A DNA stretch of 63,491 bases, counting the filler, from Collodictyon triciliatum (taxonomy: Eukaryota), in assembly GCA_043381765.1 (NCBI GenBank). It is 26 parts of 26 records of this genome, joined end to end, with 100 filler letters (N's around TTAATTAATTAA, not from the genome) between each part and the next. Parts side by side here need not be neighbours in the genome. Positions count along the whole stretch, not along the records: positions 47,684 to 50,007 come from JBHJMP010009095.1; 25 more parts are not named here. The stretch is one strand, 5' to 3'. The notes below the pieces were generated by a model, which did not search any database, was not told the origin of the DNA, and worked only from the letters and a program-made list of their open reading frames with translations. The position numbers and the translations under genes are program-made. This document shows positions 38-50,545 of this stretch, piece by piece (the first letter of the stretch is position 1; the number at the start of each line of letters is the position of its first letter).

Positions 38-616
38 TTACCTCTTCTCTCCGTCTTCTGCTCCTCCTCGTAGTTTAGCCTGTCGGCTGTCGCTGTGGCT
101 GGAGAATACCTCTTCGTAGTGGACAGCGTATGCCTGCGCCTCACGGACACTCTTCGGTTCTCGATAATCCACTTCCAGCTTAGCTCTTGTTCTCAGCCCG
201 GATAGATACCTGTGGATCCTTTCGGCTTCAGTCATCTCCGAGATTGCGTCTACTATCTCGTTAAATGATCGGATATACTCCTCTATGGAGCCGGTTTGTG
301 AGAGTTTGTCTAACTTTAGTCGAAGTAAGCGCTGACTCGTCGCTCCTCTAAACTGTCGGGTTATCGCTTCTCCGAAGTCCTTCAAGCTGTTAAGCGCTTG
401 CACTTGTCCTTTATCCTCGTCCGCTCGGTAGCGTAGCCACCATTATGCTGCGGATCCATCCAGCAGTAAACTTACGAACATTAATTCCTGCTCCTGAGGT
501 ACCTTGCGTATTTGGAAGAATGTCTCCACCTTGTATAACCATGTCCTCACGTTCTGCCCTGGTGCCCCGGAGAACATATCCGGCGGTCGAATGGCTCCCT
601 CTGTGATGGACTGCAT
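38..616 (-). mobile_element. gag: Ty3/Gypsy-type LTR retrotransposon gag (capsid-like), with one in-frame stop
   Basis: ATG at 616 reads MQSITEGAIRPPDMFSG..VRTWLYKVETFF..LLDGSAA*WW (TAA at 443-445) and continues in frame to LDKLSQTGSIEEYIRSF..IHRYLSGL, typical retrotransposon gag motifs. Lies downstream of an LTR and PBS. Confidence 0.85.
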
Positions 617-4768: not shown

Positions 4769-7549
4769 NNNNNNNNNNNNNNNNNNNNNNNNNNNNNNNN
4801 NNNNNNNNNNNNTTAATTAATTAANNNNNNNNNNNNNNNNNNNNNNNNNNNNNNNNNNNNNNNNNNNNGAGCTGAACGACATCAGCCTTGTAAAATTGGC
4901 GCGTCCATCAACTCGGTTAGTGGCTTCAAAGGCTCAAAGAACTTGTCACCGAGGCCTTTCGAGATTGAAAAAGGTATTGGGCTGCCTCAGTGATACCAAC
5001 TCGTATGAGATGGTCTTCTGGTCTATCTTGAGTAAGACATATTAGTATGAACCATCACTATAGAATGAGGTCAGCACAAGAGCCACGGGCGGTGAATTTC
5101 CTCCTCTCTCTCCCATCGCATCATGTCCTTCTTGACTCGCAGTTCTGAACCACATACGCTGGGATAGAAACTACGAAACTCGCATCGATTCCCGACAGAT
5201 CATGGCTGAGCTCAGAGAGCTTCACCACTATCAACCCGGTTGTAATCATGGTCACCCGAGGAATGGGCTTTGTCAGTGTCGCGAAAGCCGTAGCGCTTAT
5301 CACTTATCTCGAGAAGTCCACTACGAAGTTGCGTCCAAATCTGATAATACAAATAAAATAAGCAACTCGAGTTTGATATCCTCATCGACGAGCATGTGAG
5401 GGTTCTTACTTTAAAGTTCAAGATCTTCCTCATGCAAGCTGAACTAATATTAGAGGAGACCAGACAGTCGTAAGCTCGGCATTTCTCAACCATCTCTCAT
5501 TCCATTTGTTATAATTTGCAGGTTTTGAGGCTTCTGCTCAGCCATTTGTTGATCTCTGTCCTTATTGCCCATACATCCCTGAGGCATACGCAGCATAATA
5601 ATTTCCCTGACAGAAACTCTGAAGCTTTGCTTCTTTGTTAATATAATACTAAGAGGAAGGCAAAATAAGGAAAACTTTCATAATGCGTAAACATGAACAA
5701 AAGCAGATTGAACTGAAGCAAATGCATCTGAATAATTCCACGAATAGAAATATTCTAAAATATACAAAAGCGGATATTATATTGTATATTTTATTTTTTC
5801 GACATTGTCATTCCATTGATTTATACAATCACAATAATTAAATCGCATGTTGCATTAATGATGATATTTACAAATTTCACAGAATTTCATTACATGTTCG
5901 GTATTCAGAATACATACATTTATCACATGCGCTAATCAGGAACAACCCACAAGTCCAAGGAATCGGGGCTACCGAATGCTATGATGATAGTAAAAATAGC
6001 TAATGACCCGAAAAAGAACAGCATCGTTGGTTAAAATAGCGCTAGTTATCTAAAAGGTGCAGTGTCTTTTGTTCAGATATTGGTCTATTTCTTTGAATAG
6101 TTCAAGAATTGTGGCTAATTTATCACCAAATTTGGAAAATAACAAAAAATTCTTCGCATTGGTTCGTTTATACTACATTTATTGTTTAAGTATCTTATTT
6201 CGAAAAAATTTTTAGATTTCTCGTAGAAAACCAAAACTAATCAAATCTGGAAATATTATAAATTGGAAAATTTAATTAACGTGTTATTAAAATTTAAGGA
6301 AATCAAAGAACTGAGAAATGTATTAAATATACCTAGTGTAATATTTCATCTCATGCTTTTATTCTAATCTCGAACACTCACTGCCCTCAATTACTGTTGT
6401 CACTAATTGTTGATTCACTAAAGCACGCGAGTGGAGTATCCTATCATATGTTGATTAGACGCAACAATATTGCATGTCTTTCTATCTTGAATTAAAACAG
6501 TCCCACCCCCATCAATACTTTTACAAAAAGAGGCAATTGTGCGCATTACAGATGGTGGATGGTTTGTGCCTGATGATTGAAGAGAAAAGGCGGTTGAGAA
6601 ATAGTGGAGACGATTGGATTTTGGGCGAGTGAGGCAACATATCGACAGGATATATGGGTAAATAACAGTGAATCTATTTGGAAATCAAGCATTCATTTGC
6701 CTCAGGTTTCCTAATGGCCACTTGCCATGATTGTTTAAACATATAAATATAGCAAGAAAGCAATTAAGATAAAATGTCTACTTGATGTAATTTAGTGTAT
6801 CGTCATCAAATATGGTGTATGATTGAAGAATGTTGGTTTGGAGACGCATGAGCCATTCATTGACTTGATAGAAAAAAACCAACATGGCTCCACATAGTGC
6901 TTTTGTTTCTGGACACCGTTTATGCTGGGTCCAAATATCTCTTGGATAAGCTGAAAGCAGCACTAATCCCGAGAGTGCATCGCAGAGTCTCGCCCTAGTG
7001 CCACATAGATTTGGGATAATAATTCATAGATGTTTGTGCTCAATAAAGTTGTCCTCGTTCTTTGGCAGACTGGATTATTGAAGAATAATGAATAGTTTTT
7101 TCACAACTCTACGTATTCGCAAGTCTGAATGTGCTATTTTAATAGCCATAGAGCGATGATTTAGAGTAATATTTATGAAATCAATAAAGAGTCCAATAAN
7201 NNNNNNNNNNNNNNNNNNNNNNNNNNNNNNNNNNNNNNNNNNNTTAATTAATTAANNNNNNNNNNNNNNNNNNNNNNNNNNNNNNNNNNNNNNNNNNNNC
7301 CCCCACAAAAAAAAAAAAAAAGAATCTGTCCAAACTACCTACCTTGTCCAGGTACCATACCTTTGGCCCCATCTAATACCACATAAGGCCCATCTATGCC
7401 ATATCCGGCCTGTCCACAACACGTGCTACCCCAACCCTCGCCTAACCCTAGCTTAACCCTACCCTAACCCTAGCTTAACACTCGTCTGGCCTGCCTCCAG
7501 CCCTACTTTCTGCCCTGCCCTACCCGCTAGTTGCCCTGGCCCTCAACAT

Positions 7550-9630
7550 TCATACTATTTTGAGTGCCCCTAAATAACAATAACTTCCAGAAGCCAACCA
7601 TATTTCACCATTCGGTCCTTGAATACTGCAAACACTCCTGACAGTAATTGTATGTCCTTCTAACAGGTGGATTTGGTTTCCTGTGGCTACATCCCAGATA
7701 CGTATTGTATAATCATTGCTTCCAGAAGCCAGCCAATTTTCACCATTCGGTCCTTGAATACTGCAAAGACTATAGACAGCACTTGTATGTCCTTCTAATG
7801 TTTTGATTTGGTTTCCTGTGGCTACATCCCAAATACGTATTGTTTCATCACCACTTCCAGAAGTTAGCCAATTTTCACCATTGGGTCCTTGAATACTACA
7901 AACACTATAGACATCTCGTGTATGACCTTCTAATGCTTTGATTTGGTTTCCTGTGGCTACATCCCAGATACGTATTGTATTATCACCACTTCCAGAAGCC
8001 AGCCAATTTTCACCATTCGGTCCTTGAATACTGCAAACACTATTGACAGGTTCTGTATGACCTTCCAATGTTTTGATTTGGTTTCCTGTGGCTACACCCC
8101 AAATACGAATTGTTTTATCCCAACTTCCAGAAGCCAACCAATTTTCACCATTCGGCCCTTGAATGCTGCAAACACAATTTATAGTTCTTGTATGACCTTC
8201 CAATATATCATGAGGAATTCCGAATTTCACCTTATTCATATACGCATTATCAAAAACACAATCACCAAGCATCGAATTCGTGAAATCGAAACCATCCAAG
8301 TTGGCACCAGTGAGGTTTGCACCATCAAGGATTGAGTTACTGAGGTTTGCATGTGGAATTTTGATGTTTGATAAATCCAATTCAGTGAAAGAAACATTCA
8401 TAAAATTCAAAAGTGTGATTGCATTAGATGCAACCTTTGCTTTGCTCTCATCAGTATTTGACATGTAGACAATTCTGAATAAAAATGGAATTATTTGTTC
8501 ACGATTCCATTCCTTATCTAGTTTTGCATCATCAAGAGTTTCACAAATGAATTCCTTGACTCTTGTAAACTCGACAGGCTCTTTGTTGATTCCGATTCCA
8601 TTCGAATGGAAGGACAAGAATTCGCATGTGTTCAATATTCTGGGATGAATCCATCCAAGTTTATCGGCAAATCTGTCTCTCATTTCAGCCCAAAATGCCA
8701 CTGCTTCGTTATGTAGCTTGTTATCCTTGCAGTATCGGTGTGCAGTCTCACAAGCCATCCAGCAGTCCCAGTTTTCATAGGATGACTTTTCGCTGTGTCT
8801 GACAGCAGCCGTTTTGTAAAGCTGAATGACGGCTTCATGCTCTTTCTTATCTTCCAAAAGTTTCGCAATTCCTATGCATTGTGAGCCATCTTTCAGCGAC
8901 ATGATGGTATTTGTCTCATTTCTGATAACAGCTGCCTTCTGTAAGTATTCAACAACTTGGTCCAATCTTAAATAATAAAAATTGATTAAAATTAGGTTAC
9001 TTTTTATTTACACGTGGTTATCTTTAAGTACTCAATTGATAAATATAATAGAGAAATTAACCTTTTAAGCTCGAAGTTTGTTCTGCCAACATTCTCAAGA
9101 GAAGTCGCATAATCAGCATGCTTTTCGCCTAGTGTTCTCGTGCGAATATCCAACGTCTTTGAATAGGACTCCAAAGCATATTTGAAGCTATAATAGTATA
9201 AACATACGAATTATTTTTTAATCTATACAACTAAAATAATTAAAAACCATATTTCATCAAAAGATACTCCTTCAAATCATGGCTGATGTTTCCAATCTTT
9301 TCATAGCAGGCCACAACATTCGGATGGTTTCTACCCAGGGCAGACATGAAGATATCCAACGATTGTTTTAATAAGGAAGAGGCTTCCGTTTTCCTATGAG
9401 AAAAAATACCTGAATATTTTATAATAGCAAATATACTATGAGAAATTACAGCGCCTAGGTAGGATCCGTTCAATTGAAATATAAGAATCCTAATACAGAT
9501 GCCATAAATTAAAAAAATTGTATAAAAGTATCCATAAGTTTAAAATTTTCAACTTTCCACTTGCAAGATGAACACTCGCAATAAACTGGATTGTCGAGGC
9601 AACAGATGCATGCTTAGCTCCCAGCGATTT
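7550..9630 (-). CDS. TPR - pentapeptide repeat - WD40 repeat protein, 5' partial
   Basis: Kinesin-light-chain-type TPR exons (SLDIFMSALGRNHPNVVACYEKIG; TLDIRTRTLGEKHADYATSLENVG), then a large last exon with ASNAITLLN, pentapeptides (ANLSNSILDGANLTGANL) and about 5 WD40 units of 135 bp. Confidence 0.85.
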
Positions 9631-9796: not shown

Positions 9797-9924
9797 AAAA
9801 AAAAACAAAAAAAAACAAAAAAAACAAAAAAAAACAATAGAGCAAAAAACAAATCATAGATATAAAATATAGATAAATTTCGAAATACAGATACGAAAGA
9901 GTATCATTAAGAATGGAAAAATAC

Positions 9925-10790
9925 CCATGGCTCGGACCAATTTGCTGAATGATTCGAAAGGAACCAACCCACCAGGAATCTCTTTGATAAACTGCTTTAA
10001 AACTCCAAATACAGCGACAGGATCCACGGACGCCAAGTTGATTGTGATATCTGTTTGCATCGAGAATATTAGGAAGCAGACAAAAAGTAGAAAAGATGGG
10101 GCATCTTGTAATTTATGGCCGAATGATACTCGTACAGTTGCCCATAAAAATTGATATGAATACACATTGAAACATAAAAATATAAACGAATGCATTTGAG
10201 CCTTCACTTCATGTGATATTATACATTCAGTGCCACCTGAGTCGTAAATAGACTTGAGCTTTTGAACTTGCGAGCTGGGTGATGCGCTGCGAAATATGAT
10301 GTCCAAATCTACCATAGGATAAAATATGCGATTAAACTCATAAGGTTATTCTATCCAAGTGAACACCAACTGGCAACTGAAAGGAAAATATGTTTGAGAT
10401 ATCTTGGAGACAGTCTGCAATAACATTCATTAATCGCTCGCTAGAGTAGAGTATAATTAGGGTCGTCAGAGAGTGAAAGTAAAAAAGAAAAAAAAACTAA
10501 GAAACTGAGGAACAAGTTGAAAGTCTATACAATGTGGTAAAGAATGCCGAACACCACTTATTGACCAGGCGAAGAAACGCATGTTTTTGGTTAATCCGAA
10601 GCGGGCCTTTTTACCTTCTTGAACCTCGATGTAGTTTAACATTTCCAGCAGGAATGTCGGGATACCACCAGGATTTGGCCTTCTCTTCAGCACATCTGGC
10701 AAAGAAACGCCGAATACAGGCAGCGCAGTTTCTGATGGCGCACCAATGAATGGGACTTTAGAGGCTGGACTTTGACGAATAATCAAAACA
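9925..10790 (-). CDS. RhoGAP domain protein, partial
   Basis: Exons PVFGVSLPDVL..GIPTFLLEMLNYIE; DIIFRSASPSSQVQKLKSIYD; DPVAVFGVLKQFIKEIPGGLVPF. Confidence 0.8.
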
Positions 10791-38349: not shown

Positions 38350-40200
38350 ACGAATGAATCGATAGTCATGTCATGGCGGACTGTCTCAATAACGCAATTC
38401 AAAGTAAATATATAGTATGTTTGTTTGGTGCCATGTTTGCTGTGTGATATTTGGACAAGTACCTTTCCTTGCGTTTTGTTGTATGTCATCATGATTGCCC
38501 GGAAGACGATGAAGCGGATGAGCAGCTGCTGCAGAAAATCATCCTCCAAGAAACGAAGAACAGACGCCGCTAAATTAGTGGTTTCATGAAATCGTGCTCC
38601 GTAAATGCTTTCGGGTTTAAAATGAAAATAATAAGCGATAGTTGATATTGTCTGATTTGATTCAAAGTAGGTGAATATGGAAATTACGTGGACTGTTCAC
38701 TGTAAAAAGATAAGGAATCATTTCCTCCTGCAGATTCTATGTGGTTGATACGAAAACAAGAAGTTAATGAAACATCGTGTCATGTGATACTGTGGAGCAA
38801 ATGATGCTTGTGATGGAAAAAGATTCTATGCAAGATGACAGGATGAAAGCATCGTCTGGTGTTTCGAGAACTGAAAAAGAAAAAAAAGCACTTGGAAGAC
38901 AGTGGCGCAGGCCTCGTACTGCTGATAAGAAACTGTGCTGACTCCCGCAATCATGAAAAATGCATGAATCGGTGCGGACAAGAAAAGCGTAAAGAGATTT
39001 CCGATGGTGTGTGAGTCTGTGTGTAATTCAAAGATGTATTTCGTTTTAGCACTGAAGCTTTACTAAAAAAAAAAAAAAAAGGAAAAAAAAAAAAAAAAAA
39101 AAAAGGGACTGCTTGTAAATTCACGCATAGAAATTAATATTTTGGACAAGGAAAACTTTCTGTGATACCAACGTTCCAGTGAAAGAAACATCCACAAACC
39201 TGGAAGGTCGGGAGGATTCGCCATGGGAGAAAACAACGAAACCAAAGGCTGCCCGAATGTGGATTGCACCTTTTTTTTTTTATGTGTGTCACGAATTGTA
39301 CTTGTATCTTGCCTGCTGCTTCACTATTCAGAGTTTGAACAATATGTAAGGGGTTGATGAGTGCAATACCTTGAAAGTGGTGCTGAATTCGCTGTCGATA
39401 ATCAAGAACATAGGCTTCCGTGTGAAAGGAACCAAGTCTTCGGGATAGAGGCAGGAGGCAGATGCATTCTCTTGGGCTGGGGCCTATGTGTCACCGATAT
39501 GACGAACATCAGCAAATATCAAAACGATGCATTCGCCTTTTTATTTTTCTCTGCTGGAACTGCTACGTTTTCGCTAATATTTTAGAGGATGTCTTGCTTG
39601 TTGAGCGATTTGTTCAGAAATGAACAAAATATGAACCTGGGCGCCTGATGTGTTGAAGTTGATTCCCCGGGTGTACAGCCCTGACTCTGTGCGGAACCGT
39701 GTGGTGTTGAGCAAAGAATACAATATTTATAGGGTTGTATGAACGCGGTTTAAAACGTTTGATGTATCGCAGAATGTACAAATATGCTATTTTTATCATA
39801 TTTATATGTTGAATTCCGCTCAAATGTCATATATAATCCAAAAAGACAAGAAGAAGAAGAAGAAAAGCGTAAAAGGATAAACAATAAGGAATAAGGGACA
39901 ATACCAGATGAACCAGTCTTTCGCATTAGATCTGCTGAAATGTGAACCAATACCACACCAGAGTCGCTTATGTCCTATTTAATTTGCAGATGAGGACGAG
40001 CCATGAAATATATTTTCATATTTTGTACATTTCATGAAAGGGAAAACAAAGAGTGAAAGGGAAAAATATACCTTAGTGATGGATGCAAGGTGCACTAAGA
40101 ATTGAGAGACCGTAGGGCGATACAGAAGGTACTTTTTTGGATTTTGTCGGCGATTTCCCAGGCGCTCCAAATCCTCCTTGTTAATTGGTCGTGTGAATCA
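38138..40200 (-). CDS. SCAI: Protein SCAI homolog, 3' part
   Basis: NPKKYLLYRPTVSQFL; GVVLVHISAD; CLYPEDLVPFTRKPMFLIIDS; FGQPLVSLFSP; GNLFTLFLSAP; FLEDDFLQQLLIRFI; YLPESVPALP..AFESH*. Confidence 0.9.
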
Positions 40201-42249: not shown

Positions 42250-42321
42250 TTCCGATACCGGGAATCGAACCCGGGTTGTATGGGTGAGAGCCATACGTGC
42301 TACCGACTACACCATATCGGA
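42250..42321 (-). tRNA. tRNA-Glu (CTC)
   Basis: TCCGATA/TATCGGA acceptor stem, anticodon arm TATGG-CTCTCAC-CCATA, GGTTCGATTCC T-arm, T-run downstream. Confidence 0.95.
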
Positions 42322-47583: not shown

Positions 47584-47924
47584 NNNNNNNNNNNNNNNNN
47601 NNNNNNNNNNNNNNNNNNNNNNNNNNNTTAATTAATTAANNNNNNNNNNNNNNNNNNNNNNNNNNNNNNNNNNNNNNNNNNNNTTTTTTTGTGTTTTTTG
47701 TGTTTTTTTGTGTTTTTTTGTGTTTTTTTGTGTTTTTTTGTGTTTTTTTGTGTTTTTTTGTGTTTTTTTGTGTTTTTTTGTGTTTTTGTTTTTTGTTTAA
47801 CGCCTTGTGCATCATTCAAGCCTCCTATTTTCCTTCGACTGAAGCCAGCAATACACACTTTTTTTCCTTCTATTTTTTCTTTGCAGGGTAGTGCAAACAA
47901 CTGAAACAACAGCCATAGGATATC

Positions 47925-49553
47925 ATGACTGGAGAGATCGTCCATGTTTTCCTGGGCCGAGAAAGCGCCGAAGTTGCCTCGCACTACTGGGAGCAAATAT
48001 GCCATGATCACAAGGTCGACTGCACAGGCACACAGTTTCCCACCTCAGGGGCCTGCAGCAACCACGAAGACGAAGCGCCGCCTGCGAGTCACTTCCGTGA
48101 AGGCCGAGACGGACGCTTCGTTGGTCGAGGTATGTATCTCCTGAGCGAGCCCAAGGGCTTTGGAAGCATTTGCGAGGCTGCCGGGGAGAAGTGTTCCTTT
48201 GGTGAGATAGGAAGCGTCGGCTCGACCTTTACGAACGGGCTTGTTTGGGGCGAGCGCTTCGAGGACGATATTGCAAATAGGTTCCAACGCATGCTTGAGG
48301 TATGTGAGCACGTTCATGGCGTTCATATGACGCACTCTGCTCTGGATGCTGCAGGCTCCGGTCTTTTTCGTCAGGCAGCTAGTCTCTTTGCCGATCTGTG
48401 TCCCGAGGCGTTGCGTACGAGCGCCACTATTCTGCCGGATGTTGTCGGAGCCTCAAAAAAGGGCGACACAGTGTCGATCTATAATGCCGGAATGACAATA
48501 GAATCTCTTGTTTATAACGTCGATCACTCTGTTTGCTTTCGCCCTGGTGCAACTAACATGGCGGCCTCTGTGATGGACGGTTGGACTGCCGGTCATCGAA
48601 GACGGATGAATCCGTCTGCATCCATGCGCAAGATTGCTACGCTGCTAATTCCTTTTCCAAGGGTTCATTTCCATACGGCATTTTCGATGCCTCTGTTATC
48701 ATCTCCCGCATCATTTGCGCAGCAGCTCTCAGCTAGGTTTCATGAGAAACAAAACTGGTCTCTAGGCATCGACTTGGATTCGTGTCCGCTGATCGCTGCG
48801 TATGCTTCGTTGGGCTCGCCTTTTCATTCCTTAGCTGACGCATCTGTATTGTCTCAGGTGTCTTTGCCATGTGCTTCAAGGTATTATCTTCCAACACCGG
48901 TTTCGTGGTCATCTGTTTGTTCATCGCCTCGTCTCAAGGAGTCTGTAAAGATGATTGTCAATCACTCTGGAATATTCAGCGTTTTTCAGAATATACAAAA
49001 TCAATTTTCATCGGCCTTTCAACGCAAAAGATATGTTAATCACTTTTTGGATGGCCCTGTGGACGAGATGTGGTTTGCAGAGGCGGAGTCGAATCTATCA
49101 GATATCATAGCAGAGTATGAGACTGCTGCTCACTCTTACGATTCGATCGATGATGAAAATGATATGGACGAAAATGGAGAAAACGAGGAAGAGGTTGCCC
49201 AAGACTTATGGACCATCTCGGGCGAAGGTGGGCATATTGATGAGGTAGAAGTCGAAGAGGATGGAAATGGTGCAGATGATGAAGAAAATGATGAAGAGAG
49301 TGATGAAGAAAATAGTGCAGATGATGAAGAAAATGATGAAGAAAATGATGAAGAAAATAGTGATGATGGCGCAGATAATGATGATGACAATGATGAAGAA
49401 AATAGCGGTGATGGTGGTGGTGATGATGATGATGATGATGATGAAAATGACGAAGAGAATGATGAAGAAAATAGTGATAGTGATGATGATGACAATGACG
49501 GAGGGAATGATAATGGCAACGAGGAAGATCGTGAAAATGCTAACGATGATTAA
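47925..49553 (+). CDS. Highly divergent beta-tubulin-like protein with long acidic C-terminal tail
   Basis: EIVHVFLG..YWEQICHDH; GRFVGRG; YNAGMTIESLV; MRKIATLLIPFPRVHF; QFSSAFQRKRYVNHF..DEMWFAEAESNLSDIIAEYE; uninterrupted 542-aa ORF. Confidence 0.85.
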   Translation: MTGEIVHVFLGRESAEVASHYWEQICHDHKVDCTGTQFPTSGACSNHEDEAPPASHFREGRDGRFVGRGMYLLSEPKGFGSICEAAGEKCSFGEIGSVGSTFTNGLVWGERFEDDIANRFQRMLEVCEHVHGVHMTHSALDAAGSGLFRQAASLFADLCPEALRTSATILPDVVGASKKGDTVSIYNAGMTIESLVYNVDHSVCFRPGATNMAASVMDGWTAGHRRRMNPSASMRKIATLLIPFPRVHFHTAFSMPLLSSPASFAQQLSARFHEKQNWSLGIDLDSCPLIAAYASLGSPFHSLADASVLSQVSLPCASRYYLPTPVSWSSVCSSPRLKESVKMIVNHSGIFSVFQNIQNQFSSAFQRKRYVNHFLDGPVDEMWFAEAESNLSDIIAEYETAAHSYDSIDDENDMDENGENEEEVAQDLWTISGEGGHIDEVEVEEDGNGADDEENDEESDEENSADDEENDEENDEENSDDGADNDDDNDEENSGDGGGDDDDDDDENDEENDEENSDSDDDDNDGGNDNGNEEDRENANDD

Positions 49554-50545
49554 AATAGATATTATGGCAGAAACAGCACGAATGGAACTTATATTGACTA
49601 GGGATTATAAAACAATCAAAAATTATAAAATAAAGTTAGTAACTACAAACACACTTGCCAAATCGCACCTTTTGAATACTTTATAAAATATAGAAAAATG
49701 AACAGGGAAAGCATTCAAAACTACTTACAGAAGAAAAATGCACTTACTTAGCAGGGGAGTAGGGTTCCTAAAGTTAAATTCTAATGCTAATATCATGATG
49801 CTACAATCATTCCCACCAAGCACAGTCCTGATGCTTGCAAAGTAGAGAGAGGGTGCATTCTGTTTTACTTAATCATATAATAATTATGGTTTCTTTTTTT
49901 CTTTTTTTCTTTTTTCTTTTTTCTTTTTTTCTTTTTTTCTTTTTTTCTTTTTTTCTTTTTTTCTTTTTTTCTTTTTTTCTTTTTTTCTTTTTTTCTTTTT
50001 TTCTTTTNNNNNNNNNNNNNNNNNNNNNNNNNNNNNNNNNNNNNNNNNNNNTTAATTAATTAANNNNNNNNNNNNNNNNNNNNNNNNNNNNNNNNNNNNN
50101 NNNNNNNGTGGATTAAAGTCGGTGTGGTTGAGAGGGTGGCGTAGTTCCTACGAAAAGGAAAGAAGAAGAAAAGGGTTGAAGATTACGTGAACATAAAAGC
50201 AAGGGGGTAAAGAGAAAGAATCGAAAACAAATAAATAATTCACATATTTACATGTGAAAAGCATAAGTCAAGGCAGAGCTGGTATTATAGTCGTAACATA
50301 AAGCACAACTCCTTGTCCCTGTGGCGCGGAAAGAGGCACAGGGATTGATTTGCTACAATTGTTTCCCCGTTTTTTTTCCCCTTCGCAGGTTATTTATGTT
50401 TTCCTTGTGATGCAACGCGATCGCCTTTGTGCTTTCACAACCGGTCAACAGAACAGCACAGTAAATCCCGTGTTAACCCTTTTAACCCCCCAAAAGCCAG
50501 TGTGCTCTTTTGCCAGAAAGTTCAGCGCGCATAGAAACAACCCAC

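Follow-up and report, generated by a model that had tools for sequence, protein, structure and literature searches.

At positions 47925 to 49553 of the stretch of Collodictyon triciliatum DNA analysed here (63,491 nucleotides of GenBank assembly GCA_043381765.1, filler included, hereafter the window) lies the gene for a tubulin of an unusual kind, which we call P0001. It is the only tubulin-like locus within the window and the sole gene on its contig (JBHJMP010009095.1; 2324 bp, 47684-50007, with microsatellites at both ends). The protein that it encodes has the tubulin fold and finds its nearest sequence relatives among the beta-tubulins, and most of the elements that contact the nucleotide in other tubulins are, by alignment, replaced or deleted. 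How is such a gene to be read: as a tubulin put to a use that does without GTP or as a tubulin on its way out? The gene and its parts are these, all on the + strand.

47835..47924, +: 5′ untranslated region of at least 90 nucleotides (nt), from a 458-nt contig of sequencing run X2 that is collinear into the coding sequence (CDS) to 48289
47925..49553, +: complete intronless CDS of 542 codons plus TAA, diverged beta-like tubulin P0001
47955..47972, +: position of the T1 loop, GRESAE (residues 11-16) for GQCGNQ
48210..48239, +: position of the T3 loop, GSVGSTFTNG for the consensus G.GNNWA.G (GAGNNWAKG becoming SVGSTFTNG)
48342..48362, +: position of the T4 loop (tubulin signature), LDAAGSG (residues 140-146) for GGGTGSG
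48531..48563, +: S6-H7 junction, VCFRPGATNMA; DNEAL of T6 is gone and about 22 residues (H6 and the H6-H7 loop) are deleted
48594..48674, +: T7 loop, H8 and S7 (HRRRMNPSASMRKIATLLIPFPRVHFH), partly conserved; core of the predicted alpha-tubulin contact (residues 227-245)
48687..48728, +: shortened M-loop region (MPLLSSPASFAQQL), about 5-8 residues shorter than that of beta-tubulin
49002..49121, +: H11-H12, the best-kept segment, with beta-type residues (…DEMWFAEAESNLSDIIAEYE)
49122..49550, +: tail of 143 residues after E399, rich in D, E and N, net charge -75, mostly 12- and 45-nt tandem repeats
49629..49634, +: the lone + strand AATAAA of the contig, 76 nt past the stop; weak candidate poly(A) signal

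As the first-pass annotation of this DNA had reported, the open reading frame (ORF) is intact: its 542 codons run without an internal stop, and an in-frame stop lies two codons upstream of the ATG. The CDS is collinear with beta-tubulin and is therefore without an intron, which also agrees with that annotation. What had been made of the missing introns does not survive, however. The gene had been contrasted with “intron-dense” neighbours and derived from a retrotransposed copy, but the window is a pseudo-molecule of 26 unplaced contigs, ~2.3 kb each, joined by 25 identical artificial linkers, so that gene order along it is without information and the “neighbouring genes” are not neighbours at all. 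(Gene order in concatenated records of unplaced contigs should never be taken for synteny.) A poly(A) remnant and a target-site duplication were looked for in the flanks, and neither was found; the repeats that the flanks share are pyrimidine-rich low-complexity sequence, and the contig ends, in a microsatellite, 336 nt past the stop. A long intronless ORF is in any case unexceptional in this material, since an uninterrupted WD40 ORF of 485 codons stands on another contig. As for the AATAAA, it can be only a weak candidate signal because the hexamer is common in so AT-rich a window.

Fold, nucleotide pocket and tail

P0001 is a tubulin-fold protein, and its nearest sequence relatives are beta-tubulins. 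Pfam places the Tubulin/FtsZ GTPase domain (PF00091) at residues 5-205 (49.4 bits against a cut-off of 33, E 8.4e-13) and at E <= 1 finds no other family, neither Tubulin_C (PF03953) nor the Misato/DML1 domains (PF10644, PF14881), although the C-terminal region does align with beta-tubulin in phmmer. In a search of solved-structure sequences, 170 distinct chains pass E <= 0.01, the best of them at E 1.3e-33 and 119.8 bits, and the top 60 are all beta-tubulin. An AlphaFold 2 (AF2) model of residues 1-425 reaches a mean predicted local distance difference test score (pLDDT) of 85.9 and a predicted template modelling score of 0.88; it was built on an alignment with 67 fetched tubulins, an input that favours a tubulin-fold result, and its confidence is low at residues 41-50, 81-100 and 301-340 (pLDDT 56-68 for the last). 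The 50 PDB matches that Foldseek lists for this model are all beta-tubulin chains (template modelling score ~0.8, E ~1e-30), and ESMFold2, which works free of alignments, gives P0001 a pLDDT of 79-80 as a partner in the complex model described below. BtubA/B, TubZ, FtsZ and CetZ do not occur among the 60 top-ranking PDB sequences or the 50 chains listed by Foldseek, which are eukaryotic beta-tubulin throughout.

With canonical beta-tubulin (the TUBB family), then, P0001 has in common the fold, the order of domains and the best matches, and its N-terminus aligns from Met1. The parts of the canonical core that it keeps are S1, H1 (W21, E22), S4, H5-S6, H7, H8-S7 (PFPRxHF) and H11-H12. A beta-like core with degenerate GTP-contacting loops had been claimed from the first, and the phmmer scores, the 60 best PDB matches and the alignment of the loops bear this out.

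The loops themselves were compared by aligning P0001 with beta-tubulins and other matches, 67 tubulins besides P0001, and the alignment upholds the replacements first noticed by eye: GRESAE, LDAAGSG and the loss of DNEAL and H6. The fourth-position glycine of T1, gone from P0001, is missing from just one other (GGFSSR) among the T1 variants listed for the 67. The LDAAGSG of T4 fails the pattern [SAG]-G-G-T-G-[SA]-G, which we take to be the PROSITE form of the tubulin signature; about three others of the 67 have a T4 as degenerate. The S6-H7 span is down to 7 residues, in comparison with at least 14 in every one of the 67 and typically 23-25. Against 11 reference tubulins (4 named alpha, 4 beta and 3 gamma), there are 56 invariant columns, of which P0001 keeps 26 and changes 30. 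The changes include Q12R, G14S, N100S, G141D, G142A, T143A, D206R, N207P and N210T, at positions that are presumably the phosphate and guanine-base contacts; three residues that we understand to hold the guanine are gone (N207P, the deleted H6-H7 tyrosine and N210T), and an aspartate (G141D) now sits in what should be the phosphate loop. What is retained of these elements is the GSG of T4, the DT and YN of T5 and the RK of H8.

Read from the alignment, most of the nucleotide-contacting elements are replaced or deleted—T1, T3, T4, T6, and H6 with the start of H7—and T5 is partly kept, whereas the best-kept parts are the structural core, the T7/H8 region and the beta-type H11-H12 (17 of the 37 beta-fixed positions in residues 346-405 are retained). 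With the pocket residues lost, an aspartate in the phosphate loop and H6 deleted, P0001 is unlikely to bind GTP at the exchangeable site, and we would call it a tubulin pseudo-GTPase. Beyond the degenerate T1, T3, T4 and T6 and the H6 deletion of ~22 residues, it differs from canonical beta-tubulin in its low identity (25-27%), its shorter M-loop, its undetected Tubulin_C domain, its N-terminal MTGEI in place of MREI (presumably the tetrapeptide of beta-tubulin autoregulation) and its tail, 143 residues long instead of ~17.

That tail had been described as acidic and some 143 residues long, and so it is. Asp (43), Glu (33) and Asn (21) make up 68% of it, with 14 Gly and 9 Ser, and past the same anchor, the tails of the 67 aligned tubulins have a median of 17 residues and a longest of 54. 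Its codons, in repeats of the GAT/GAA/AAT type, have a guanine-plus-cytosine (GC) content at third positions (GC3) of 0.23 (49140-49550) in comparison with 0.50 in the core (47925-49139, overall GC 0.51); the core thus stands well above the WD40 gene, with a GC3 of 0.32, and above the overall GC of the window, which averages ~0.35. Our inference is that replication slippage, in a genome crowded with microsatellites, lengthened what had been an ordinary acidic tail. In the core, for its part, some of the codon bias of a highly expressed parent may survive, and the tail appears to be younger.

Class, selection and transcription

Where among the tubulins does such a protein belong? An exhaustive HMMER search with residues 1-405 against 1.84 billion representative proteins gave 796 matches at E <= 1e-3, 141 at E <= 1e-10 and none at E <= 1e-30; the best (E 8.3e-27, 110.6 bits) is 29% identical. 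Identity among the matches listed goes no higher than ~37%, those above 32% being short partial matches, and P0001 itself is absent from that library. A word-based protein search returned five proteins, all beta-tubulin-like and 26-27% identical, and among JGI metagenome contigs 30 pattern matches gave no relative, none being confirmed by tblastn. Of 154 matches that were fetched, 147 are nearest to beta references (57 at >=60% identity, 26 at 45-60% and 64 below 45%), 3 to alpha and 4 to gamma; the references were labelled by way of PDB searches, which made P0154 alpha-class and P0103 gamma.

In local phmmer, P0001 scores 96-108 bits to the 4 beta references, 56-63 to the 3 gamma and 44-57 to the 4 alpha; its identity is 25-27% with beta, in comparison with 20-22% with either alpha or gamma. 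The reference classes are 41.5% (alpha-beta), 31.7% (beta-gamma) and 28.7% (alpha-gamma) identical, so P0001 stands farther from beta-tubulin than these ancient classes stand from one another. At 63 columns diagnostic of alpha versus beta, it agrees with beta at 19 (many of them in H11-H12), with alpha at 6 and with neither at 38; at 36 columns diagnostic of gamma versus beta, the counts are 9 for beta, 8 for gamma and 19 for neither. A tree of 19 chosen rows (IQ-TREE, LG+C20 with posterior mean site frequencies; P0001, 10 beta or beta-like, 4 alpha-like and 4 gamma or gamma-like, the other matches, many of them fragments or fusions, being kept out for speed) has a branch of 99/97 support that parts the alpha-like and gamma rows from P0001 and the beta rows. 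A FastTree run on 68 rows paired P0001 with P0053; it was flagged as a meeting of long branches and set aside. The nearest clusters in an ESM Atlas feature search carry the automatic name tubulin delta chain (score 0.94), which we treat as a lead only; a second such search showed P0045 to be alpha-like and not delta.

A beta origin is, from these comparisons, the best-supported reading, if an unproven one, and P0001 is best filed as an extreme, previously undescribed variant among the lineage-specific divergent beta-tubulins. Such proteins have precedents. One paper describes lineage-specific, long-branched “divergent groups” of alpha- and beta-tubulins in ciliates and cites an earlier proposal for Retaria (PMC11321004; see also PMC5455982). 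Like P0001, these are long-branched beta-derived paralogues confined to one lineage and outside the six pan-eukaryotic classes, although the same paper discusses them as microtubule components, which is not how we read P0001 (PMC11321004). Many of our 64 far beta-like matches are of that kind, and many of the fetched matches are without an exact GGGTGSG-type motif. In none of the 67 aligned tubulins, however, do a missing T1 glycine, a degenerate T4, a deleted H6 and a tail of more than 54 residues come together as they do in P0001.

Was so much change tolerated, or was it selected? In a neutral simulation (substitution only, starting from P0001's own core and run to 30% identity), none of 300 runs stayed free of stops; the mean was 19 stops, and the minimum was 8. 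Nearly all of the divergence, it follows, happened under selection for an open frame. Real neutral decay would bring frameshifts too, and all indels of P0001 relative to beta-tubulin are in frame; over its 542 codons, we find no frameshift, in-frame stop or truncation, nor any indel in the 1050 nt covered by other sequencing runs. P0001 keeps 26 of the 56 universally invariant columns, a higher share than its 50 of 211 at other beta-fixed columns (Fisher p = 0.0014), and among the invariant columns, the nucleotide loops keep 8 of 25 in comparison with 18 of 31 elsewhere (p = 0.064). Along the protein, in residues 1-60, 61-130, 131-205, 206-260, 261-345 and 346-405, the beta-fixed residues retained by P0001 come to 0.36, 0.25, 0.30, 0.38, 0.16 and 0.46, and those retained by alpha-tubulin come to 0.54, 0.64, 0.54, 0.54, 0.41 and 0.51. 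The most changed regions are T2-T3-H3 and M-loop-H9-H10, and the C-terminal helices are almost as beta-like as those of alpha-tubulin. Judged by this alignment, the profile is not that of uniform decay.

Transcription is suggested by two cDNA-like contigs, from runs X1 and X2 of one study, which cover 1050 nt at ~99% identity without indels. The X2 contig spans 47835-48289 (455 nt), from 90 nt 5′ of the ATG into the CDS without a joint, and the X1 contig spans 48705-49299 (595 nt). On the + strand ahead of 48705, the latter has a loose end, GTATCAACGCAGAGTACATGGG, which we take to be the 3′ part of the SMART template-switching oligo; if so, the cDNA would come from RNA of the same sense as the ORF. 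The gene is apparently transcribed, then, and in the sense orientation. Pieces of the core without a single difference are also found in a subsurface metagenome (164 nt) and in a freshwater metagenome (151 nt), and so the sequence exists outside this assembly. Most matches in those two metagenomes fall in the low-complexity tail, at 90-95% likeness and with unlike flanks, and were disregarded. Shares of 0.06-0.10 in further freshwater metagenomes were likewise set aside, and nothing is read into the want of coverage at 48290-48497 and over the 3′ untranslated region.

Within their one study, X1 and X2 carry the labels of two different organisms, although each matches the window at ~99% identity. 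Those organisms may be very closely related, or the gene's owner may be common to both samples, for example as prey, symbiont or carry-over.

What the protein might do

To our knowledge, all well-studied eukaryotic tubulin classes keep the GTP pocket, and nucleotide binding in tubulin is tied to folding, to dimer formation and to the dynamics of the polymer. What, then, could a tubulin without the pocket still do? The reading that we favour, to which we give a probability of about 0.4, is that P0001 is a non-polymerising mimic of beta-tubulin that pairs with alpha-tubulin and blocks or withholds it, with an oversized acidic tail attached. The minus-end face of P0001 (T7, H8 and H10) would dock on the plus-end face of alpha-tubulin as that of beta-tubulin does; the resulting dimer would have no exchangeable nucleotide and an altered plus-end face, and it would either sequester alpha-tubulin or end a protofilament rather than extend it. 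The strongly negative tail could add repulsion or attract basic microtubule-binding proteins. Normal longitudinal and lateral contacts in the lattice are improbable for P0001, since the plus-end loops are altered and the M-loop is short. A bolder form of the idea, which we hold to be unlikely, is that this is the first tubulin pseudo-GTPase, a nucleotide-free, non-polymerising, alpha-pairing protein that acts as a built-in terminator or sequesterer, and so as a regulator of microtubule growth encoded in the genome, and whose ~75 negative charges make an oversized E-hook competing for the basic proteins that bind microtubules.

The pairing was modelled, in three runs and with alignments unused, between P0001 and a stand-in alpha-tubulin from another organism (P0285). 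The complex scores 0.72 in comparison with 0.27 for the best of three controls; among solved complexes, 51 of 78 attain that mark, as do 2 of 108 mismatched pairs, and for eukaryotes the counts are 39 of 65 solved pairs that have no like older complex and 2 of 126 unrelated ones. The runs share at least 81% of their contacts, and the partner's pLDDT is at least 78. Predicted contacts on the alpha side are residues 11, 70-76, 95-101, 176-181, 220-223 and 396-406 and on the P0001 side residues 227-245, 291, 305-310 and 321-328, so that P0001 is seated in the model as canonical beta-tubulin is on alpha within the dimer. The first-pass annotation had asked for structure predictions of the protein alone and with alpha-tubulin: alone, the tubulin fold comes out clearly (pLDDT 85.9), and with alpha-tubulin, the seating is beta-like and may owe something to the model's memory. 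Such a result is a likeness and no proof that P0001 binds alpha-tubulin. Of the roles first suggested for the protein—decoy, cap or chaperone—each may have this one in-silico support.

A cytoskeletal GTPase that has given up its nucleotide would not be alone. Septin pseudoGTPases (PMC10731463) are reported to be paralogues that lost nucleotide binding or hydrolysis and kept their place in the hetero-oligomer; they would be like P0001 in having a degenerate pocket and a kept assembly interface, and unlike it in belonging to a different superfamily and in having an established oligomer role, whereas binding by P0001 is only predicted. Among the papers listed in searches of the open-access literature, none concerns a tubulin without a nucleotide pocket or a tubulin pseudoGTPase. 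If a selected, pocket-less tubulin is what we have here, the fold would be reusable as a nucleotide-independent binding module, as in septins and small GTPases, and P0001 would be a natural tool for asking which tubulin surfaces suffice for pairing with alpha-tubulin or for recognition by chaperones or motors. If it is a dying copy instead, it is a case of how far a tubulin gene can drift while open and transcribed.

Several things weigh against a selected beta mimic, and we would rather set them out together. The contigs of X1 and X2 differ from P0001 at six listed places, and five of the six are nonsynonymous (H47Q, R64C, I82V, C332Y and V443A), for a pN/pS of 1.37 (751 nonsynonymous and 206 synonymous sites). 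The chance of at least five in six is 0.0005 at an omega of 0.05, 0.006 at 0.1, 0.13 at 0.3 and 0.62 at 1, which excludes for the recent past the strong purifying selection that is typical of tubulins; with only six differences, in contigs that could hold errors or be a paralogue, relaxed selection and neutrality are inseparable. Going by these counts, present-day constraint may be weak or absent. The RNA label of X1 and X2 is a tool's guess, no holder being on record as RNA. Neither an orthologue nor a paralogue turned up in any collection searched, and so conservation over time is unmeasurable. In the IQ-TREE tree, the end branch of P0001 is extremely long (3.58 in comparison with a median of 0.73), and the approximately unbiased (AU) test does not reject placing it with the gamma rows (p = 0.16) or with the alpha-like rows (p = 0.13). 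The complex score may reflect the model's memory of the much-solved alpha/beta dimers, the predicted contact at 305-328 lies partly within a stretch of low AF2 confidence, and most positions of the T7 loop are changed. Finally, the folding of a tubulin and its release from chaperones require bound GTP, and a nucleotide-free tubulin may be unstable. The first-pass annotation had named three observations that would tell against its idea: nesting within a known divergent class, silence and neutral evolution. Nesting in a sequenced tubulin group is not seen (no matches at E < 1e-30), and the gene is apparently transcribed, but the third may hold, the 5:1 differences fitting relaxed or no present constraint.

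A nucleotide-independent tubulin is thus a surviving hypothesis with modest in-silico support, and a drifting gene is the serious alternative. That alternative, which we regard as quite possible, is a divergent beta-tubulin paralogue recently freed from selection, still transcribed, open by chance and growing its tail by slippage. It has the 5 to 1 ratio on its side, which is fully compatible with neutrality, as well as the want of relatives among 1.84 billion representatives, the loss of residues thought essential to any tubulin and the failure of Tubulin_C to appear at E <= 1; the tail of 12- and 45-nt repeats in AT-rich codons (GC3 0.23) suits a genome whose contigs mostly end in microsatellites, and the core's GC3 of 0.50 would lie between the tail's value and that of a possible highly expressed parent. 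Tubulin copies of this general kind are on record. Findeisen et al., who set out the six pan-eukaryotic classes, treated as pseudogenes those single-exon copies in which fully conserved residues are substituted, even stop-free ones (PMC4202323), and a passage on Trichomonas counts expressed sequence tags for 24 of 31 tubulin-like segments (PMC9222396). Judged by those passages, expressed tubulin pseudogenes are like P0001 in their single exon and their substitutions at invariant residues. P0001 is unlike them in having no frameshift, stop or truncation over 542 codons at ~74% amino-acid divergence, and the other evidence against mere decay is of the same sort: a frame that none of 300 simulations keeps open at such divergence, indels every one in frame, invariant structural positions preferentially kept (p = 0.0014), a fold that is confidently predicted with and without an alignment, and transcription in the sense orientation.

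The beta mimic must also be set beside readings in which P0001 is not beta-derived, is a working tubulin or is not real at all. A fast-evolving member of a described class other than alpha and beta (delta, epsilon, zeta or eta), or of a lineage-specific “cryptic” class, could account for the delta-chain names in the ESM Atlas, the non-beta placements left standing by the AU test and the undecided gamma-versus-beta columns; it has to contend with HMMER, which puts canonical beta first in both the PDB and the exhaustive library, 40-60 bits above alpha and gamma, with the beta-type residues of H11-H12 and with the Foldseek matches listed, all of them beta chains, and we think it very unlikely. 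Less likely still, in our judgement, is a working, polymerising specialised beta isotype with unusual nucleotide binding, used in particular microtubule arrays. The divergent groups of beta-tubulin that passages of PMC11321004 describe in ciliates, citing Retaria, would be its models, and the beta-like predicted pairing with alpha-tubulin and the kept GSG of T4, DT and YN of T5 and RK of H8 would suit it; yet P0001 is more extreme than all 67 aligned tubulins (T1 glycine, H6 length, T4). The residues that we believe to hold the guanine (N207, the H6-H7 tyrosine and N210) are lost, moreover, G141D intrudes on the phosphate loop, and the M-loop, on which lateral contacts depend, is shortened. 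Least credible of all is an assembly artefact or a contaminant from another organism. A lone unplaced contig of 2.3 kb whose GC content (0.42) is above the ~0.35 typical of the window might raise the suspicion, but contigs in the window range from 0.26 to 0.48, most have microsatellite ends as this one has, and four independent runs carry pieces of the sequence at 99-100% identity (595, 455, 164 and 151 nt).

The rest of the window

The linkers that join the contigs have the sequence N44-TTAATTAATTAA-N44 and bring a stop into all six frames; they stand at 2335-2434, 4769-4868 and so on to 62241-62340, and the contigs between them are sorted by decreasing length, with a few out of order (3850, 2438 and 2332 bp). 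The tubulin contig is bounded as follows.

47584..47683, no strand: artificial linker between the preceding unplaced contig and the tubulin contig, N44-TTAATTAATTAA-N44
47684..47787, +: microsatellite (TTTTTTTGTG)n at the contig's 5′ end, 10.5 copies with 97% matches; assembly break
49890..50007, +: microsatellite (TTTCTTTT)n at the contig's 3′ end
50008..50107, no strand: artificial linker between the tubulin contig and the next unplaced contig

Most contigs begin or end in microsatellites or homopolymers, such as (AAT)n, (TGT)n, (GTTTGA)n, (GAATG)n, poly-A/T and poly-G (examples are at 2435, 4768, 14593, 28264, 35552 and 52532). Simple repeats are evidently where the assembly breaks, and they are extremely abundant in the genome. 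It is AT-rich as well and rich in retroelements: an ORF like that of a long interspersed nuclear element (LINE) runs from 55616 to 57392 (+), with an endonuclease domain (PF14529, PF03372) and then the start of a reverse transcriptase (PF00078), and on another contig, 41-442 (-) is a fragment of a Ty3-type gag (PF03732, PF19259).

The uninterrupted ORF of 485 codons at 7550-9007 (-) has pentapeptide repeats (PF00805) together with at least four near-identical WD40 blades that share the motif CSIQGPNGENWLASGS; in a homology search, its N-terminal part has one relative that is 67% identical (P0156) and otherwise only distant pentapeptide proteins. At 15412-16407 (-), an open frame of 331 codons consists nearly throughout of a degenerate SFIHSF/SFILSF/SFFHSF repeat, and over 200 codons are open in each of the two remaining frames of that strand as well; it is a minisatellite and not evidently a gene.

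A Pfam scan of the ORFs of the other contigs found fragments only (gag, RhoGAP, WD40, SCAI and RVT), which fits split genes. It covered 134 of the 150 ORFs listed; the 16 left out overlap the tubulin gene, were scanned separately or overlap such ORFs (WD40, LINE and 26855-28162), or lie antisense within the LINE. The short, lone matches resemble single exons of split genes: SCAI over 44 residues at 38829-39059 (-), RhoGAP over 38 residues at 9857-10345 (-) and one WD40 blade at 33125-33409 (-). Two tRNA genes, on different contigs, lie at 20040-20111 (+) and 42250-42321 (-), with Rfam RF00005 scores of 56.8 and 67.6 bits.

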